34,773 nucleotides of DNA from Basidiobolus ranarum (GCA_040143965.1 JASJQH010000065.1:1-34773), one strand, 5' to 3'; positions 13,752 to 34,773 are shown, numbered from the stretch's first letter. Notes: a model not told the origin generated them from the letters alone. Numbers and translations: made by a program.

Positions 13752-15275
13752 TTAGATATTAACTCTAGAGAAATCACATTCTAACAATGGGACCATTTTG
13801 GTTTTTTTCACCACTTTGTAGCTAACAAAGAAGATGATGAATATGACCACGCCCAAGTATGCAGCACAGATGGCACTCCAGTCGATGGGATCGGATGCGA
13901 ATCCTGTGTAACCTTGACCAGCGATCACAATAAAGCAAATAACAAACGCGACGATAGGTCCAAATGGAAACCATTTTGCATGATATGGAAGATCATTCAT
14001 ATCACGTCCTTGAGCAATATACGCTTTTCTAAATCGATAATGGGATACGGCGATACCTAACCAAGCGATGAATCCGGTGACACTGGAAGCATTTAAGAGC
14101 CATATGTAAACCACTTTGTTCCCGAATAATGATGAGAGGAATGATAGGCAGGCAATTAATGCCGTGAATGCAAGTGAGTAAATTGGAATTCCCCCGGAGT
14201 TTACTTTCTTAAAGATTTTCGGAGCTTTTCCTTCATTCGCTAGCATCCAAAGAGTTCTACTAGCACCATACATTCCGGAATTTCCTGCTGAAAGAATGGT
14301 GACCAGGATGATAGCATTCATTACATTCTTAGATTGTGTAAAGCCTGAACGCTCAAATCCGAGAGTGAAAGGACTGGTGGCAACATCATTTTGTGTGAGA
14401 TCAGGATCGGTGTATGGAATAAGCATAGATATGACAAAGATAGCGCAAATATAAAATAGTACAATACGCCAGAATACTTGCTTCACCGCTTTAGGGATAT
14501 CTTTTTCTGGATTGGCAGACTCCCCTGCCGCTACACCCACCATTTCAGTACCTTGAAAGGAGAATCCAGCTGCTAAGAATACGTTGAGCACTCCAATGAA
14601 TCCATTTACAAAGGGTGCTTCACCGACAGTAAAGTTCTTAACACCGTAAACTTTTCCACCTAAAACACCAGCTGATACTAATATACCAACAATCACAAAG
14701 ATGATCACGGTTATAACTTTGATAAGGGCAAACCAGAATTCTGCTTCACCGTAGCCTTTAACTGAAAGGGCATTGAATCCTACGATGAACAGGAGTAGGA
14801 TGAACGCCCAAACAATCCCTGGACATTTCTCCGTACTTATCCTCATCTGCATGATTCCCTCGCCAGCTGAAAGTTCAGTAGCGACTGTGATGGCCCAGCT
14901 GAGCCAATAATTCCATCCTAAAGCGAAGCCAAAGGCTGGATCAACGAAACGAGAACCGTAGGTATTGAAAGATCCGGATATAGGTATATAAGCAGCCATC
15001 TCTCCAAGAGAGGTCATCAGGAAAAATACCATAACACCGATCAATCCGTAGGCTACCAGGGCACCACCGGGACCACCATTGGCGATAGATTGTCCACTGG
15101 CAATGAAAAGACCAGTACCGATAGTACCACCAATGGCAATCATCGACAGATGTCGAGTCTTTAATGTACGGTTGAGTTGTTCAGTTTGACTCTCAACCTG
15201 AATGATAGAGGCTTTGGAGGGATCCCCATGGGGCTTCTCTAGGTTTTCCATACTAATGGATTCATCATTGACCAT
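13752..15275 (-). CDS. lysP: APC-superfamily amino acid permease, bacterial LysP-like, intronless CDS (copy 1)
   Basis: First ATG at 15275. Motifs LKTRHLSMIAIGGTIGTGLF, FALGWNYW, GEAPF, GFSFQGTE, QVFWRI, IPYTDP, SAGNSGMY, GFIAWLGIAVSHYRFR, DLPY and GP(I)xAF follow the order of E. coli LysP as recalled. Confidence 0.9.
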   Translation of the reverse strand: MVNDESISMENLEKPHGDPSKASIIQVESQTEQLNRTLKTRHLSMIAIGGTIGTGLFIASGQSIANGGPGGALVAYGLIGVMVFFLMTSLGEMAAYIPISGSFNTYGSRFVDPAFGFALGWNYWLSWAITVATELSAGEGIMQMRISTEKCPGIVWAFILLLFIVGFNALSVKGYGEAEFWFALIKVITVIIFVIVGILVSAGVLGGKVYGVKNFTVGEAPFVNGFIGVLNVFLAAGFSFQGTEMVGVAAGESANPEKDIPKAVKQVFWRIVLFYICAIFVISMLIPYTDPDLTQNDVATSPFTLGFERSGFTQSKNVMNAIILVTILSAGNSGMYGASRTLWMLANEGKAPKIFKKVNSGGIPIYSLAFTALIACLSFLSSLFGNKVVYIWLLNASSVTGFIAWLGIAVSHYRFRKAYIAQGRDMNDLPYHAKWFPFGPIVAFVICFIVIAGQGYTGFASDPIDWSAICAAYLGVVIFIIFFVSYKVVKKTKMVPLLECDFSRVNI

Positions 15276-15717
15276 ACTGAAACCTAAACCTACTGTATTG
15301 GTAAAGGTGAGATAAAGGAAGGAATAATACACAAATGTAAGGAAAAGAAATTCCCAAAAACCTACAGAGAGGATGGTATATATAAGCAAATCTCATACGA
15401 ATGAATACTCATAAGAACGAATGTGACTAGACATTGGAGAACAAATAAAATGGATTTTTACTTATCAAGATACCATCAACCAATCGCTAGGTTGCTACGC
15501 TCCTAACACGCTTTCCACTCCCGGGAAAGTAAGAATTTTCCACGGCGCTTGTCCAATCTGTAGGCACAAAAAGTTTGTTGTAAGAGAACGGTTATGGAAA
15601 TTTGTTCATATTAGGGAGGAATCTCCAAGTATGTACATAAAATTCGTTCAAATTGAACTGGTGATATTTATTTGCCAAAATTAGAAGTAGCCATGATAGG
15701 TCTAGATATCTAAAATT

Positions 15718-15996: not shown

Positions 15997-17514
15997 TTAC
16001 CGATTACTCCTGGAGAAATCGCACTCCATAAGAGGTACTAATTTGCTTTTTTTCGCTACCTTGTATCCAACATAAAAAATGAGGAAGATGACCACTCCAA
16101 TATAAGTAGCAACTAAACCAACCCAGTCGACTGGTGTGGTGGTGAACTTGCCATACCCTTGACCAACAATCATTATCAGGATAAGAATAAACGCAAAGAT
16201 TGGTCCAAATGGGTAGAGTTTGGCGCGGTACGGTAAATCTTTTAGGTCTCGTCCTTGTGCGATATATGCTTTTCTGAAGCGATAGTGAGATATCGCGATA
16301 CCTAACCAGGAAAGAAGCCCCGTAATACTAGCCGCGTTAAATAACCAATTAAATACGACACTATTTCCGAAGAGTGAAGTGAAGAATGACAAGCACGCAA
16401 TGAGAGCGGTGAATCCAAGGGCATAGATAGGGATACCGCGAGAATCGACTCTTTTCAAGAACCTGGGGGCTTTACCTTCGTTTGCCAACATCCAAAGAGT
16501 TCTACTGGCTCCATACATACCAGAGTTACCAGCAGAAAACACTGTGACTAATATGACAGCATTCATAGCGTGTGGAGCAGCACTAAAACCAGAGAGTTGA
16601 AAGGCCAGGGTAAATGGACTAGTAGTGATTCCTCCTCGAGTGAGATCAGGGTCTGTATAGGGAATAAGCATTGAGACGACGAATATTGCGCAAATGTAGA
16701 AGAGTAAGATACGCCAGAACACTTGCTTCACAGCTTTAGGAACATCTTTTTCTGGGTTAGCTGATTCACCTGCAGTTACACCCACCAGTTCAGTACCCTG
16801 GAATGAGAATCCAGCCACTAAAAACACTCCAAGTACTCCGAGAAATCCATTCACGAAGGGGGCTTCTCCAACACTTAAATTCGAGACACCATAGACCTTT
16901 CCACCTAAAGCACCGGCTGATACCAATATACCAACAATAATGAAGACAATCACTACGATGACCTTGATCAGGGCAAACCAGAATTCCACCTCACCATAAC
17001 TTTTGACTGAAAGCACGTTAAATCCTATCATAAATACGAGTAAAATGATTGACCAAACTATTCCAGGAACGCTATCAGTCCAATATTGTATGATCCCCGC
17101 TCCAGCTGCGAGTTCAGTAGCGATGGTAATTGACCAACTAAACCAGTAATTCCACCCTAGAGCAAATCCGTACGCCGGGTCAACAAAGCGAGAGCCATAG
17201 GTATTGAAAGAGCCAGAAACGGGTATGAAGGCAGCCATTTCACCAAGAGAGGTCATCAGAAAAAATACCATTAAGCCAACTATAGCATAGGAAACAAGAG
17301 CACCACCAGGCCCGCCCTCAGCGATAGATTTACCACTAGCAACAAAAAGGCCAGTACCGATGGCACCACCAATAGCAATCATTGATAAGTGACGGGTCTT
17401 TAAAGTACGGTGAAGTTTTTCCCCGTCATACTCTGTGGAAAACTTGGTTTGATTAGGGTCCGTGGGGTATTCGGCTCTATGTATTCTATCCAAATCATAA
17501 GAGTTTTTATGCAT
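15997..17514 (-). CDS. lysP: APC-superfamily amino acid permease, bacterial LysP-like, intronless CDS (copy 2)
   Basis: First ATG at 17514. It carries the same motifs as copy 1 (GGAIGTGLFVASG, FLMTSLGEMAA, GFSFQGTELVG, QVFWRILLFY, WLGIAISHYRFR) and is its collinear tandem paralog. Confidence 0.9.
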   Translation of the reverse strand: MHKNSYDLDRIHRAEYPTDPNQTKFSTEYDGEKLHRTLKTRHLSMIAIGGAIGTGLFVASGKSIAEGGPGGALVSYAIVGLMVFFLMTSLGEMAAFIPVSGSFNTYGSRFVDPAYGFALGWNYWFSWSITIATELAAGAGIIQYWTDSVPGIVWSIILLVFMIGFNVLSVKSYGEVEFWFALIKVIVVIVFIIVGILVSAGALGGKVYGVSNLSVGEAPFVNGFLGVLGVFLVAGFSFQGTELVGVTAGESANPEKDVPKAVKQVFWRILLFYICAIFVVSMLIPYTDPDLTRGGITTSPFTLAFQLSGFSAAPHAMNAVILVTVFSAGNSGMYGASRTLWMLANEGKAPRFLKRVDSRGIPIYALGFTALIACLSFFTSLFGNSVVFNWLFNAASITGLLSWLGIAISHYRFRKAYIAQGRDLKDLPYRAKLYPFGPIFAFILILIMIVGQGYGKFTTTPVDWVGLVATYIGVVIFLIFYVGYKVAKKSKLVPLMECDFSRSNR

Positions 17515-17599
17515 TGTTGGAATGAAGTCCAACGGGTGAAATCGGTAACCTGGGAGAAGGTATAAACAATAAAGACAGAGAGACCAAGTTCGAACAGAT

Positions 17600-17656
17600 A
17601 TACTGCTGTTCAGAAATAGGCTTCGAAAGGAGATACTGCTATTCAGAAATGGGCTT
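17600..17656. repeat. Imperfect 24-bp direct repeat (period 33)
   Basis: atactgctgttcagaaataggctt (17600-17623) versus atactgctattcagaaatgggctt (17633-17656), 22/24 identical. Confidence 0.85.
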
Positions 17657-18115
17657 TGGCTTGGCTTTTAACAAGATTGAGTAATCTAACCAGGGCTCAA
17701 ATCTCGCAATTTCAGGTTTTTTGTCCCCCTAAACCGGATAATTTTAAAGTAAGTGGGAATTCTTTCTGAAACTACTTACATCAGAATTGGCATTGGAGAG
17801 TGATGATGAGAAAACCACCTCACTATATTGAGAAGGCTGAAGTTTAGTAGTTGAGCAACACCCACCAGAAATGTATATTACTGGATACCAACTGTCTATA
17901 CCACCTGTCGTCGGTTTACTATTTAGTAAGAAACCGAGAATACACCTCGTGATCTACAACATGCCAAATTTAGTCTCACGAGATAGATACGAACATATAG
18001 TTCCCATAGCCGATTGACCCACCTTGAGAACCAAAATATGCTAGATAATTAATTTATATCCTGCCTAAAGCTGACCAACGTTGGAAGACTGCTGAAATGT
18101 TGTGCAAAAACGCTG

Positions 18116-22906: not shown

Positions 22907-23468
22907 GCTCTCGAAACTATATTAGTGATGCTTGACTCAAGCTAGCTATAACTTATGATAAGTTTGTCCACGGTGATATAGATAAATACTGGGCATTCAG
23001 GGTGATCTAGATGTGCAATGTCAGATAAAGCGAAAGTTACTGGAATGGCACATATACCCAAGCTACTGGTACATTTAAAAATATGTGACTGGCCATTTAT
23101 ATGGAGATTGACCTTCATGACAAGGGTCAAGATATCGTTGTCACTCAAGCAACCTATTCGTTTTTTTATTAGTGCTTGTAGATAGACACTTTCCTTGCTT
23201 TCATTTTCACATGTCAACGGCTATTTGCCATAACCACAACTTTAACAATACTGAATTTAGATAAGGCATTTGATGCTTAATCCGATTAGATTATGTAATT
23301 GGCTACATGGTTTCCCCTTCAAGAGGAAGGTATATTACCATTTACCATTACCATTGGAAATTGTCAGTATTATTACCTGGGCTCCTTGAAATGAATCCAA
23401 TTGAATTCAATATTGAAGCACATAAACCTATCTTCTCTGCTTATTCCCTCTCACAATCTTTTACTGTC

Positions 23469-24929
23469 ATGACTAGAAGACGTTCTGAAGCTAGTTCCTT
23501 GCCAACGCAAAAACCACCAGCTATACAGCAAAAAGTGGTTTTTCCCCAGTCAGGAACTGATTTCGAAACGGAAGGTTTCGGACACAAAAGTAAACTACCC
23601 AATCGTACCACCAAAACCTCTCAGAAGCTCGCCCTTTTCCCTGAAGCAGAACAAGATGTTCACCTTTTACCTGGAGATTTTACAGAAAATGAGTATTATT
23701 CTACTATCAAACATCTCCCTAGAGTTTCTGCTTACTGTACAGCATCGTAAGTGGACCTTTTGCTTTACCGAGTACTTTCACCAATTCAGTTATTGAACTA
23801 ACTATGTCAATAGCTCTTATCGTATGGACAGTCTTATGAAGCATTTTCAATCTTTAAAGCGTAGATATCTTTCAACACCAAAGCGTTTTGACGAATGGTA
23901 AATTCCTTTATATTCACTATGACTTTTTTCAAATTCTTATGAATGGTTTATAAGTATATATTCTCCTTTCTCATTCCATGCGGAATCGATCAATGGCACC
24001 GTTCCCACTGGAGACCTGCTTTCTTTATCGGCGGGAGATACAACAACCAATGTTGACCATAGCTTCCACCAATACGAAGAGAATGAGTTGAATTCCTTTG
24101 TCATGGGAGAGATATTTTTGTTTGATTACGGAGTGTGTGTATTGTGGGGATTTACAGAAAAGGAAGAGACGAAAATCCTTGAAGAGATAGCACCATTTGA
24201 AAAAGAGAAACTTGATATAACAGATGTAGAGTCAGAGCAATTACATTTTCGCTACAATAGCTCAGCTAAACCGAATATCTTCAACGATATTATCACTTTG
24301 AAAAATCCCTCCAATTACATGGTAAAACTTACCATCTCACATGCGATTGCTCAGTCTGTCAAAATGACCTTGTTTGAAGAGTTAGTGGATGCTACGATCG
24401 CAACTACAAAGTATATCCCTCAAGATATAGCACAATCCGGAAAGGTTAACATGTCCAGAACAGCCATTACTAAAAAGATTGGTCAGCTCTTCATCATGAG
24501 AATCAACGTGAACCTCGTGAGTAACATACTGGATACCCCAGAGATATTTTGGTCTGAGCCTTCACTGAAGCCTCTCTACAAAACCATCAGAGGGTATCTC
24601 GAGATTGGCCAAAGAGTAGACTTGCTCAACCAACGAGTGAGCGTAATTGGGGACTTATTGGAGATGCTGAAAGATCATCTGAATAGCTCGCACAGTAAGT
24701 AACCCATTTTCGTTAGTTCATGACATCTTGATTTACATTTCTCTTTTACCAGGTGAGCAGCTTGAGTGGATCATTATCATTCTCTTAGGTAATCATTCTA
24801 TGCTATGTTGTACGCAGATCTTTTTCTAACTTTTTGATTTATTTTTTAGTATTTGAAATTATCATTGGCCTCAGTACAATCGGATTCGATATCGCCAACT
24901 TTAAGCAAGGCACTGGTATGATACATTAG
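23469..24929 (+). CDS. RMD1: RMD1/Sif2 family (DUF155) protein, paralog A, 5 exons
   Basis: PNRTTKTSQKLALFPE, LPRVSAYCTASSY, FLFDYGVCVLWGF, KLTISHAIAQSVK, NLVSNILDTPEIFWSEP, EQLEWIIIILL. Exons 23469-23746, 23814-23897, 23955-24694, 24753-24788, 24850-24929. Confidence 0.9.
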
Positions 24930-25291
24930 GTTCCATCATTGAGCTGATCGAATAGTGTAACGATCCTTGCACTTATTATAATAAACATTAATGCAACATC
25001 AGTTAATTCTTTTTTCCTCTTGTATTTTGCAATCGGGAATTGGCCTATCATATTAATACAATCCATCCAATCAATTCTTCCACCCTGAGCGGGGGCAGTC
25101 ACCTATTTAAGCATTTAAGGGTTGGGTAAATTACCCTGTCGACATCTATAATAGTTTCCCATTTTTTTTGGTGCAAATGAATTAAGGAGCAGTTGCGCTT
25201 TTATAGCTTTTATATATAACCTGAATATATACGGTATCCTTTATCTTCATATATATTTCCATTCACTCTGTTCCCTGAACCACAGTAAAAG

Positions 25292-26693
25292 ATGAAGAGG
25301 AGAAACCAGCTACCTGCCTCATTACCTATTCAACAAAAGGTTGTTTTCCACAATGTGGACGGGAATGATTCCAATATTAACGGGTTAGAGTCAAGTCTCT
25401 CTCGTAGTAAAGCCAAGCAACCTAACCGAACCACCAAAACCTCTCAAAAACTGGCTATATTTCCGGAAGAAGAACAAGAGGCCGAATTATTGCCAGGTGA
25501 CTTGACTGAAGGTGATGAAGTTTACAACCAGATTGCTCAAATCCCTTCTGGTACCGCTCGCTTTGAAGCAGAGCAACTAAGTAAACTTCGTCGTAAACAG
25601 TTGCCCAGAGTATCCGCTCACTGTACCGCCACTTCTTATCGTATGGATAGCTTGATGAAGTACTTACAAACTTGTCGTAATAATCACTATACTGCTCCAA
25701 AACGTTTCGACGAAGTACTTTATACTCCATTTTCTTTTCACTCGGAAAAAATCAACCAAAGAAATAACATAGCTACTGGGGATTTATTACTCATGGAAAA
25801 CGGTGAACCCACACCCCAACAATCATTATTTGATACACCAGTCAGTGAAGAGTTAAATAATGTATTCTTACTTGGGGAGGTGTTTTTCTTTGATTACGGA
25901 GTTATTGTTATGTGGGGATTCAGTGAGGAAGAAGAGCAACAATTATTGAAGCAAGTAGCTCCATTTGAAGTGGAGAAGCTCGACAATGATGATGTGGAGG
26001 TGGAAGAACTTAACTTCCATTATAATCCTTCATGTCAACCGAGAATTTACAACGATATCATCACACTGAAGCACCCCAAGAATTACATGGTTAAACTCAC
26101 CATCTCTCACGCTATTGCCCAGTCAGTCAAAATGACACTATTTGAAGAGTTGGTGGATGAGACCATCAATGCTACCAAACATATCCCTCAAAACATGGCT
26201 CAAACCGGTAAAGTGAACATGTCTAGAACGGCCATCACCCAGAAGATTGGACTAGTAAGTTGACCACCTATATATGATGGTGAATTCCGTCTAAACATTT
26301 TTGATATTCTAGCTGTTCATCATGAGAATCAATGTAAACCTTGTCAGCAATATACTAGATACACCAGAGATATTCTGGTCTGAACCTGCTCAACAACCAC
26401 TCTACAATGTAATGAGAGGGTATTTGGAAATTTCCCAGAGAGCCGAACTATTGAATCAACGTGTTAGTGTGATCGGAGACCTTCTGGAGATGTTAAAAGA
26501 TCATCTGAATGGAACCCACGGAGAAAAATTAGAGTGGATTGTGATCCTTCTTATCGGTAAGTTTCCATCTAATCATGTTTGATAAACTAGTATCTGACAC
26601 TGTTTTTGTTTTTTAGCCTTTGAGATTGTCATTGGTCTCATTACTATAGGATTCGACATAGCAAACTACAGAGGTGGCGCACAAAAGGATTAA
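25292..26693 (+). CDS. RMD1: RMD1/Sif2 family (DUF155) protein, paralog B, 3 exons
   Basis: Same motifs as paralog A, plus EVYNQIAQI and HGEKLEWIVILLIAFEI. Exons 25292-26254, 26313-26556, 26617-26693. Confidence 0.92.
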
Positions 26694-30718: not shown

Positions 30719-32519
30719 ATGTCAATCAAAAGCAAGAAAGGTCAAGAAGCTATTTCGGGGACAGCAATTATGGAGGTCCAATTTGCCAAAGAGTGCCATA
30801 ATCTAAGCGAATCAAATAAAGGCTCTAAAAGCGTTGTGACTGAGATTCTGACCAAAGATATTGAGCGTTTTGGAAGTGACATATCCTTGGATGTGCCTTC
30901 AAATGCGATATACTCAGAATACTTTACAACCGAAGACGAGAAGAATTTGGTGAAGAAAATGGATTGGCGAGTTCTTCCTTATGCTGGATTGATTTACCTG
31001 TTCTTTGTGTTAGACCGTGGAAATGTTGGTAAGAGAATCTAATTGATTGTCCAAGGGCCAAGCACATCAAGTAAACTTATAAAATATAGGCTGCGCACGG
31101 TTAGCTGGAATCGAAACTGACCTACATCTGTCCCCGAGCCAGTACTCTATGTGCTTGTCAGTTTTTTATATTGGTAGGTCCAAGTTGTTACCTTCCCTTT
31201 CAGTTAATTTCTGAACAAGATCTATATGTAGGCTACGTTGTTTGCGAAATTCCATCAAATTTATTGCTGAAACGTTTCAGCCCTTCAAGATGGATTGCAA
31301 TGACTATGGTATCTTGGGGAATATGCACTCTGGTAACCGCTACTGTAAGAAATTTTCAAGGATTGGCCGTTGCACGCCTTTTTCTTGGCTTCACTGAGGC
31401 TGGGTAATACGATATCTAATATCTTGAAACAATGCCTTCACTAACTATCTTACAGATTATATCCGGGCCTTATATTCTACCTCACTTTCTGGTACACAAG
31501 AAACGAGCAGAGTTTAAGATTTGCTTTGTTCACTTCAATCAATAGCCTTGCAAACGCTTTTAGTGGAGTCCTTTCTTACGCAGTTATTCAATTAGCTGAA
31601 TATGCTGGTCTTTCCGCTTGGCAATGGATCTATATACTGGAGGGGGCACCTACGGTATTGATTGGGGTCACCACCTGGTTTTATATGTCGAACACACCTA
31701 CGGATGCTCCTTGGCTAAGTGAAAGAGAGAAGGCACTAGCTGATTATCGATTAAAAAAAGATTTTCGAGACAAACTGACCAGGACTTTTGATAAGAAACA
31801 ATTTGCTGATGCATTTAAAGATCCAATTGTCTTGCTATATATGTTGATCAGTTTTGCTCAAGTAGTGCCACTGGCTTCAATCTCCCTTCTTCTTCCAACA
31901 ATTCTTCGCGATGTGGGTTTTAGTAATACGAAAGCGTTGCTGCTGTCTTCACCCCCCTTTATTCTCGCGACCATTTTGAGTATTTCAATGTCTTATCTAT
32001 CCGATAAGCGTCACAAACGTTCTATTCATGTAATTTTACAACCATTAATCGGGGTAGCAGGCTTTACTATGCTCTTGTTTTTTAATAACCTTTGGATGCT
32101 ATATGCTGCTGCCTGTGTTGCCACACTAGGAGCTTTCTCGTATAGTGCTATTTCCATCAGCTGGCTTACTAACAATATATCTGGCTCAACTAAAACCGCC
32201 ACTGCAACTGCTCTGGCTACTGCTACTGGAAGCTTGGGAGGTATGTTGACTTGATAGTCGATCCCTTCTTTACTTTCGTTTCTCTCCATATTAACGATAT
32301 AGTTTTGTAGGAATAGTGGCCGGACAGCTCTACCGAGCCAGCGAAGCACCCCACTATATTTCTAGCCATCTAATTAATATATCTGCACTGTCACTAGTAA
32401 GCTTATGTGCTATTATCATGCGCTTGTATCTAATTCAAAAAAACAGCCAATCACCAAGAGAATCGAATCTGAAACAATCAGAGAAATCAGAGATGCTTAC
32501 ATTTCGGTATACCGTCTAA
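30719..32519 (+). CDS. MFS transporter, anion:cation symporter (Dal5/Tna1-like) family, 5 exons
   Basis: EKNLVKKMDWRVLP, LDRGNVGCARLAG, CEIPSNLLLKRF, RLFLGFTEAGLYPG, FWYTRNE, WQWIYILEGAPT, APWLSEREK, WLTNNISGSTK. In-frame GT-AG introns. Confidence 0.93.
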
Positions 32520-32889
32520 ATGTTAGCTCACTCTCAAACTTCTCATTGGAAGTCCTCCACCTGTTTGATATGCTTATTTGACAATCTAAATGGGATATGT
32601 AGAGAGTACCTTGGGCCAAAAATAATGGGCAAAATTAGATTCATACCAACATCTAGTCCGTCGCTAATGTTATTACTCCTAGTAATGCAAGTCAATAAAG
32701 TTAAGATATTCTTACAAGTTCCAAGGTTACACTAATAACATCCTATTTGATGCTATAAATTCTGGTGCATTTTCTATTTCTAAATTGGTGATACAAATTC
32801 CCCTAAAAAGTAATGTAAATCCAATTGACACTATCAAGGGTAATCTGTTTCAATCAACTTTAAGCATTGCACACTTATAAAGCAAATAC

Positions 32890-33010
32890 TGTTGAAATAA
32901 GCATAGCCTAAATATATATAAATAGCCTAGTATTTGGTTATTCCATATTACACTAAGATATCACCTACTATTCTGAAGAGAAATAACTTAGAATCCTTAT
33001 GAAATATGTG
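32890..33010 (+). mobile_element. 5' fragment of the same LTR family as 369-696
   Basis: Begins TGTTGAAATAAGCATAGCCTAAA, matching the reverse complement of the solo-LTR end (TGTTAAAATTAGCATTGCCTAAA). It also shares tagta...cactaagatat. Confidence 0.75.
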
Positions 33011-33489
33011 AGTTGAAATCCCAGAGAGAAATTAGCAAAAATTTCACCTGATCCTGATTTGTCATGGGGATCCCATCACAATTTGTCCTGAAAACTGATT
33101 TCCAACTACAAAAAATTGATTTGCATCTCACCTAATGTATTATTCTACTGGATTGTCAATCTATTATTTGCTAAAAATCTTTGCAATAACTCCTCACTTG
33201 TAATAGGATGATCTTCACAGTGCACAATTGAATTCTTTGATTTTGATTCATTATATTCTGACCAGATTTAGCTACTCTTCAGTATTATATAGAGTTCTGG
33301 TATGAAAAGAAATATATTCCTTGTTAGATTTTATTAGCAGCTCAAAAAGAATTACCATTTAATCAGTATATTCCTGTTGCAGTTTTTTTCCAGAGTGGAA
33401 AGATTCTTGTGTTGATATGTTATTGCTGATTTAATTTCTTTCAAAAGTTCTCTTCATCAGCTGTACTTGGTGTAAGTCTTGCCAGTTTC

Positions 33490-33610
33490 TGTTGCAATTA
33501 GCATTGTCTAAGCACCAATATAGTCATAAATAGCTTAGTAATTAGTTATCCTATGTTTCACTAAGATGTTACCTAATGTTGTAGATTGAAGTTTACTTAG
33601 AATGTTATTA
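33490..33610 (+). mobile_element. 5' fragment of the same LTR family as 369-696
   Basis: TGTTGCAATTAGCATTGTCTAAGCACCAATATAGTCATAAATAGCTTAGTAATTAGTTATC...CACTAAGAT aligns with the reverse complement of ~585-696. Confidence 0.85.
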
Positions 33611-33617
33611 CCAACTT

Positions 33618-34385
33618 GGCCTTAGTTTGAGTACAATAACCCAGAAATATGCAATTCTTACTTTTTGGATTAAATTTAGATCAATTTTTGATCATAATTT
33701 TGACATACACAATGCATCCAAAGATCCTCAAATGTTTTACATTTGGCTTAACTCCAAACCAAGCTTGATGTGATGTAGAATTAGACACACTTCTAGAAAT
33801 ACTCCTATTCTTCCTATATACAGCTATAGCACCAGATTCCATCCAAAAGTTATGAGATAAACTTTATGCATTTATCATAGATCTTGCCATTTCTATTATA
33901 GTCCTGTTAGCTCTTTTGGCAACTCCATTTTGTTGAGGTGAACAGGGGGCATTAGTTTCTTGTTTGATTACATGAACTTTGCAAAAGTGATTTAATAGAG
34001 ATGAAACATATTCTCCATCATTATCAGTACATATTTTTGCAAGTCTAGTTCCAGTTTCAGTCTTTACAAGTGTTTTAAAATCTCTAAGCATAGAGAGAGC
34101 TTCTTCTTTCCTTTCCATAAAGTAGACCTAAGTGTATCTTATATAATCATCAATAAATGCAATTAAATACATTTATCTGCCTAAAGACAAATTCTGCATA
34201 GGTCCACACAAATCTGAATAAATTAGATCCAGTTTTTGACAGGTTTAATTAAGCCTGGAATGTTTGCCTGGCTTGTTTTCCATTTATGCAACTCTCACAA
34301 ATTTCCATTTTGGTTGGGATATTAATTTGAATGCCTGAAATTAGGCAATTTTTGACCATTTTGCTCATATAGTTAAATCCAATGG
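33618..34385 (-). mobile_element. Degenerate Ty1/copia pol fragment (pre-integrase Zn region, integrase core, C-terminal region)
   Basis: CESCINGKQ, then a frameshift, LDLIYSDLCGPM, FIDDYIRYT*VYF, TDNDGEY, PQQNGVAKRANRTIIEMARSM, HLRIFGCIVYV, SKFNPKSKNCIFLGY. Several in-frame stops. Confidence 0.93.
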
Positions 34386-34773
34386 ACTTGTTCCATTGTG
34401 CTAGGATTTATCAGACCTTGGCTCAATATATTAGAATAACTGTGATTGAAATTGATCATGCTGGAGGGTGCTGGATAGTGCCAAATTGTCCTGTAAAAAT
34501 TCCAGAATACTGTATCCAATACAACATATACAGCACAATCCCCAACAAAAATAAAATCATTTTGATCAGGATTAGATCCACCCTTCTAGATTGCAAAACT
34601 GTCAGAGAACCATCACAATATTGGTGGCTTGCATTCTGCCAGGGATTTTTATGGTGAGGGTGGCTTCTTGATGGTATTTTGACAGCATTCATACATGGTT
34701 AAATATTGATCCTCTTAATTGGCATGCATTATTTAATTTCTGACATTTTTTGGAGGGCCTATCACAGAGCTGA

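Follow-up and report, generated by a model that had tools for sequence, protein, structure and literature searches.

CpG-free transposon and repeat remnants at both ends of a Basidiobolus ranarum contig, probably a product of methylation-linked decay

Main

Methylated transposons are known to lose CpG dinucleotides through deamination of 5-methylcytosine (5mC) in vertebrates and plants. Classical RIP, described in Neurospora and other Pezizomycotina, is a RID-dependent process with a CpA-to-TpA bias, which leaves a high TpA/ApT index and a low (CpA+TpG)/(ApC+GpT) index. Fungal cases of CpG decay in methylated transposable elements come from Agaricomycotina, Ustilaginomycotina and Tuber melanosporum (PMC3318451, PMC4352252). 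According to statements in this literature (PMC3318451, PMC4352252, PMC4014442), CpG-biased C-to-T changes in the elements of basidiomycetes and Tuber are ascribed to 5mC deamination, and a possible RIP-like process acting at TpCpG is raised for Pucciniomycotina. In the account of PMC11258239, Linderina (Zoopagomycota) and Phycomyces carry their 5mC almost entirely in repeats; the same account describes 5mC as scarce overall in Zoopagomycota, which counts against explaining the locus described here by methylation.

The window, a contig of B. ranarum analysed over its whole length of 34,773 nt, is laid out as a gene-dense core with repeats at both ends, and these ends contain no CpG. Like transposons decayed by 5mC deamination, they have lost CpG specifically and within repeats only, with TpG and CpA gained in return, no other dinucleotide targeted, and genes spared; unlike them, the loss is complete rather than partial (none of the ~78 CpGs expected over 3 kb, both ends pooled), and the host is a zoopagomycete, belonging to a group for which PMC11258239 reports little 5mC. 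The RIP-like TpCpG hypermutation of Pucciniomycotina (Microbotryum; PMC3318451, as described there) likewise changes C to T at CpG within repeats and lacks the classical CpA signature, but the Basidiobolus ends have no visible TpCpG-only preference. Classical RIP shares with them a repeat-restricted, transition-based inactivation and AT-richer blocks adjoining genes, whereas the indices of the Basidiobolus 3′ end run in the opposite direction. The contig ends are probably old transposon and repeat remnants whose CpGs were lost through methylation of the repeats and deamination of 5mC, in a family that was already CpG-poor.

Extent of the CpG-free contig ends

The features defining the two ends are as follows.

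31445–32254 and 32316–32519, plus strand: upstream exon (MFS_1, E 9e-24) and final ORF of the neighbouring MFS transporter gene, with a putative exon join; stop codon at 32517–32519
32659–32663, strand not applicable: last two CpGs of the contig (32659–32660 and 32662–32663), the border of the 3′ CpG-free domain, from the dinucleotide count
32664–34773, no strand: CpG-free repeat domain at the 3′ contig end (the tail), 2,110 bp, 0 CpGs against 55.0 expected
1–906, no strand: CpG-free repeat domain at the 5′ contig end (the head), 0 CpGs against 22.7 expected

The contig contains 881 CpGs, the final one at 32662–32663. A preliminary description of this DNA had reported that no CpG follows this position, that dozens would be expected there, and that the border lies about 145 bp past the MFS stop codon. 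The counts bear it out on each point: the tail has 0 CpGs in 2,110 bp, where 55.0 are expected from base composition and 40.2 at the core observed/expected ratio (o/e) of 0.73. The head, which is also CpG-free, was absent from that description. At the core o/e, the Poisson probability of a tail without any CpG is ~3.5e-18. The lowest CpG count was 41 among 593 sliding windows of 2,110 bp in the core, 32 among 2,000 mononucleotide shuffles of the tail, and 14 among 618 core windows of 906 bp; the longest gap between CpGs within the core is 256 bp. The GC content of the tail is 32.4%, against 38.9% in the core.

Within the core, long ORFs (CpG o/e 0.74) and non-ORF DNA (0.72) are alike, whereas both repeat ends stand at 0.00; the loss is therefore a property of the two ends and not of non-coding DNA generally. 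The CpG-free pieces are of unrelated kinds: they include a copia fragment, members of two short repeat families, and spacers of no assigned type. Both borders are sharp and lie close to genes, 145 bp (tail) and ~245 bp (head) from the respective stop codons. Neither end retains a CpG able to carry 5mC.

The core holds tandem gene pairs. Two adjacent, intron-free amino-acid permease genes (13752–15392 and 15997–17667, both on the minus strand) are 67% identical to each other and ~58–62% identical to LysP-type proteins of Bacillales (Brevibacillus, Heyndrickxia, Laceyella), which makes the bacterial proteins as close as many Basidiobolus paralogues; one amino-acid permease of the contig shares 89% identity with a protein of Basidiobolus meristosporus. 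From these identities the tandem pair looks like part of an expanded family of bacterial origin, and earlier reports describe horizontal transfer into Basidiobolus. A tandem duplicate is seen for a gene of the DUF155/RMND1 family (23274–24702 and 25289–26263, both on the plus strand), with DNA repeats 71–80% identical at a spacing of ~1820 bp.

Dinucleotide signature of the loss

The tail is enriched symmetrically in TpG (o/e 1.31) and CpA (o/e 1.34). Its surplus of TG plus CA amounts to 74, against 40–55 missing CpGs, and the corresponding surplus in the head is 17, against 17–23 missing. The RIP indices are 0.78 (TpA/ApT) and 1.67 ((CpA+TpG)/(ApC+GpT)) in the tail, and 1.03 and 1.13 in the head. 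A search for a TpCpG-only signature through trinucleotides found none, the TG excess being spread over CTG, GTG and TTG (ratios between the repeat ends and the core of 1.20 for CTG, 1.35 for GTG, 1.28 for TTG and 0.92 for ATG, with the proviso that saturation would erase any preference). The TpG and CpA gains, the negative RIP indices and the spread of the TG excess together characterize the loss as CpG-specific, strand-symmetric and of the CpG-to-TpG/CpA transition type. This agrees with the CpG-specific loss, limited to repeats and sharply bordered, that had been put forward for the tail, and adds the accompanying TpG/CpA excess.

Classical CpA-type RIP was considered as a source of the signature and is excluded by the indices, which point in the opposite direction; CpA and TpG were gained, not lost.

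A copia relic in the tail

Two adjoining parts of one Ty1/copia element were identified in the tail.

33606–34232, minus strand: remnant of the integrase core and SH3-like domain, truncated at 33606 and interrupted by 4 in-frame stops over 209 homologous codons
34258–34407, minus strand: GAG-pre-integrase (zinc-finger) remnant of the same element in another frame (gag_pre-integrs, E 3.7e-5)

Domain and homologue searches of the integrase part used a read-through of 33543–34232 on the minus strand with X at the stops. The SH3_retrovirus match lies above the Pfam cut-off (E 1.5e-15 to 3e-16), whereas those to rve (E 3e-7 to 1.5e-6; 28.8–30.9 bits, cut-off 32.6) and gag_pre-integrs (23.9 bits, cut-off 28.4) lie below it. 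Homology to copia is nevertheless settled by phmmer matches to copia polyproteins (TNT 1-94-like) at 44–48% identity, with E down to 6e-56. In tblastn comparisons with 10 full-length homologues, 33606–34232 (to 34268 in two of them) corresponded to residues ~470–690 of polyproteins of ~1360 amino acids, and 8 of the 10 gave a second segment at 34258–34407 in frame −1, covering the gag-pre-integrase region. Because this remnant is in a different frame, the reading frame must have shifted at least once between 34232 and 34258. The order gag-pre-integrase, rve core, SH3-like C-terminal domain is that expected of copia.

In these respects the relic resembles Ty1/copia elements; it differs from them in its state of preservation. 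It is an ~800-bp internal piece of an element of ~4–5 kb, truncated on both sides, and the contig ends inside the element. Neither tblastn nor six-frame Pfam searches detected protease, RT or RNase H homology anywhere in 32664–34773, the six-frame Pfam search returned only the three copia domains, self-comparison of the contig yielded no LTR pair, and Rfam gave no match on the tail at E up to 0.1. The closest named protein matches come from plants and insects, at 40–48% identity. Searches for sibling copies returned a best match of 51% identity and none from Basidiobolus among proteins, and, in a metagenome scan, 56 loci at no more than 46% identity except for one 56-residue match at 52%; neither search yielded a family-level relative. 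An exact look-up of six tail ORFs in a sequence collection likewise gave no match.

Lesions at conserved integrase codons

For the lesion count, the read-through was aligned to 120 homologous integrase regions (38–48% identity), which represent the consensus of the superfamily and not of the family. Of the 209 homologous codons, 89 fall in columns with at least 70% conservation; at 23 of these columns the relic differs from the consensus. Single-base changes can account for 20 of the 23 departures, and a CpG-transition route is available for four of the 20.

34176–34178, minus strand: G19R, AGA after C, compatible with C-GGA to C-AGA; Gly in 97 of 120 homologues; absent from the preliminary description
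34029–34031, minus strand: R68C, TGT, compatible with CGT to TGT; Arg in 116 of 120 homologues, in the LRTDNGGEY motif
33915–33917, minus strand: E106K, AAA after GCC, compatible with C-GAA to C-AAA, the preceding base still being C; Glu in 117 of 120 homologues
33681–33683, minus strand: R184stop, TGA, from CGA (a CpG transition) or from AGA (a transversion); Arg in 117 of 120 homologues

Ten of the 20 single-step departures are transversions; the others, besides these four, are transitions outside CpG. With CpG-type changes at only 4 of 20 and transversions at 10 of 20, this copia copy is old and broadly decayed. A context-free null gives 2–4.5% CpG-type changes, for which the probability of four or more in 20 is 0.0007–0.011. 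As a control, the same count in 17 related, stop-free copia integrase regions from metagenome loci gave 0 CpG-type changes in 135; the difference from the relic has a hypergeometric P of ~2e-4 by our own arithmetic, with control loci that include near-duplicates and are not independent. CpG-type lesions are thus enriched at conserved integrase residues, yet they form a minority of the damage. Their presence in the relic and absence from intact relatives indicates that some CpGs were lost after the loss of function.

The four codon changes on which the preliminary description had built its case for CpG transitions all sit where it placed them, but only three of them are compatible with a CpG transition. 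The IRTD-to-ICTD change (34029–34031) fits CGT>TGT, but related loci give no backing to an ancestral CGT, having AGR in 34 of 36 cases at this column and CGN in none. VAER to VAKR (33915–33920) is compatible with a CpG transition, given the conserved Glu and the retained preceding C. The Arg-to-stop change (33681–33683) fits CGA>TGA, but AGA>TGA is another route to it, and relatives have AGR in 28 of 28 cases and CGN in none. With no CGN among relatives at either column, the ancestral CGT and CGA are unproven and R184stop may be AGA>TGA. The proposed change of FD to FN (TTT AAT, 33669–33674) falls away: the 120 homologues have L-D, not F-D, at this place, and one CpG cannot give two CpG-type changes.

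Short dispersed repeats

Two families of short repeats are also present.

32883–32994, plus strand: copy of a ~110-nt dispersed repeat also present in the head; 72–79% identity to 90–202 and 33489–33603
33489–33603, plus strand: copy of the ~110-nt repeat adjoining the end of copia homology (33606); 87% identity to 615–696 (inverted)
1–104, 204–342, 369–510 and 697–841, direct and inverted: head copies of a ~140-nt repeat, from self-comparison
90–202 and 584–696, direct and inverted: head copies of the ~110-nt repeat, from self-comparison

The head is a nest of these elements, with about four copies of the ~140-nt repeat and two of the ~110-nt repeat at up to 97% identity; its six-frame Pfam search returned a single chance-level match (NdhL, E 0.003, below cut-off). 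Copies that have diverged by 3–14% are all CpG-free. Some copies of the ~140-nt repeat are only 3% apart, and in these the loss of CpG predates their duplication. Among repeat copies within the contig there is one TG/CA double difference, too few to use.

The 219 bp at 32664–32882, which separate the last CpG from the first recognisable repeat copy, are CpG-free and match nothing else in the contig. They represent either unrecognised transposon sequence or a spread of CpG loss beyond the repeat edge.

CpG poverty of related copia elements

Related copia elements are themselves poor in CpG. The o/e is 0.08–0.25 in the 17 uninterrupted integrase regions and 0.11–0.49 across 36 whole related loci. 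The metagenome copia loci L002–L021 combine uninterrupted integrase regions with strong CpG depletion and near-exclusive use of AGR at conserved Arg columns, and their copia clade as a whole seems to avoid CpG. The relic shows a similar codon choice, with AGR at 6 of its 8 conserved Arg columns (all 6 Arg codons that it retains), whereas 85 of the 142 Arg codons in host ORFs (60%) are CGN; at host usage, two or fewer CGN in eight has a probability of ~0.05 (our arithmetic). The preliminary description had pointed to equally CpG-free intact family members as the observation that would speak against it. Uninterrupted relatives do prove CpG-poor, but the contig ends, at zero, are lower still: no related locus is as depleted, and at an o/e of 0.12 about nine CpGs would be expected, with a probability of ~1e-4 for none (our arithmetic).

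These comparisons bear on whether the repeats already lacked CpG at the time of their arrival or copying, their composition being native to a methylating host or a CpG-poor donor, with little or no local loss. The low o/e of the uninterrupted regions, the relatives' AGR in place of CGN, the AGR bias of the relic and the CpG-free state of short-repeat copies 3–14% apart all favour such an origin. As uninterrupted relatives are also CpG-poor, part of the poverty probably predates the death of the copia copy, and, taken with the use of AGR and the CpG-free repeats of 3% divergence, this suggests families already poor in CpG at the time these copies arose. As a full account of the contig ends, however, native composition is unlikely. 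The relic has CpG-type lesions at 4 of 20 positions against 0 of 135 in intact relatives, zero lies well under the relatives' level, and unrelated pieces and spacers are equally CpG-free. A CpG-depleting process in the lineage would still be needed, so that the proposal overlaps with methylation-linked decay.

Slow decay and active hypermutation

From the stops and the excess departures, the neutral divergence of the copia piece since its inactivation is roughly estimated at ~0.07–0.14 substitutions per site. If 40–55 host-like CpGs were lost in place over that time, CpG transitions would have to be ~18–26 times as frequent as other transitions, also a rough estimate. Such a ratio would be at the high end of, or above, the usual range of passive decay; it would be unremarkable if the family began at an o/e of 0.1–0.25.

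An elevated rate would also be produced by active, repeat-triggered CpG hypermutation, RIP- or MIP-like as proposed for Pucciniomycotina, which would strip a repeat of all its CpGs shortly after recognition and leave borders sharp at the repeat edge. Saturation (0 of ~78 expected), a depletion deeper than in any of the 36 related loci, the ~18–26-fold hypermutability required for loss in place, the CpG-free state of short-repeat copies that are still 97% identical, and borders at 145 and ~245 bp from gene stops are all in its favour. Since the contig ends exceed every related locus in depletion, an active CpG-directed process has some place among the candidates. We nevertheless regard it as improbable. 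The copia lesions are largely of non-CpG type (10 of 20 transversions, together with 4 stops, a frameshift and truncations at either end), and lesions of this kind in such number make the piece old enough for slow decay. The TG excess in CTG, GTG and TTG gives no TpCpG-only signature, the gains of TpG and CpA are symmetric and without strand bias, and the repeat copies differ by a single TG/CA double difference. The more specific proposition that Basidiobolus has an active, repeat-directed CpG hypermutation, a RIP/MIP-like defence based on a DNMT1-class enzyme with borders a few hundred base pairs from genes, appears distinctly improbable. If true, it would place a targeted C-to-T genome defence outside Dikarya, and the low 5mC of zoopagomycetes would be explained by consumption of the substrate.

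An assembly artefact, in which the ends would be chimeric joins or foreign DNA, such as that of an animal host whose genome is poor in CpG, is highly improbable: although the CpG-free stretches both lie at contig ends and the nearest named copia matches are plant and insect proteins at only 40–48% identity, the two ends share the ~110-nt repeat, there is no close foreign match (best 51% identity), assemblies normally break inside repeats, and the CpG-free stretches continue directly from gene 3′ flanks in one contig.

Discussion

Under methylation-linked decay, the repeats would have been methylated at cytosine-5 of CpG over a long time, and deamination of 5-methylcytosine would have turned their CpGs into TpG and CpA, while the genes between the two ends would have stayed unmethylated and kept theirs. 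The copia family was probably CpG-poor while active, as its relatives are, and a few CpGs held by selection, for example in conserved codons, may have decayed after the death of this copy, bringing the count to zero. Methylation as the cause of the loss, and the timing of the loss, are what we infer from the pattern of change. B. ranarum presumably has a DNMT1-type enzyme, judging from its sister species B. meristosporus, for which a CDCA7F zinc-finger protein is given in PMC10538959, and from the general statement in that paper that HELLS and DNMT1 are present in nearly all CDCA7-bearing species.

The mechanism of decay is a textbook one, and among the papers listed in our literature searches none reports CpG-free repeat islands in Basidiobolus; one of these searches listed no paper that mentions Zoopagomycota. 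The novelty is the example in this lineage. CpG-free repeat islands beside CpG-normal genes would preserve a fossil trace of cytosine methylation. Should the whole genome show this pattern, Basidiobolus has, or once had, heavy methylation of its repeats, despite belonging to a phylum for which little 5mC is reported, and bulk 5mC measurement would underestimate a methylation system whose substrate has disappeared. CpG o/e could also be of practical use as a cheap repeat mask in Basidiobolus assemblies.
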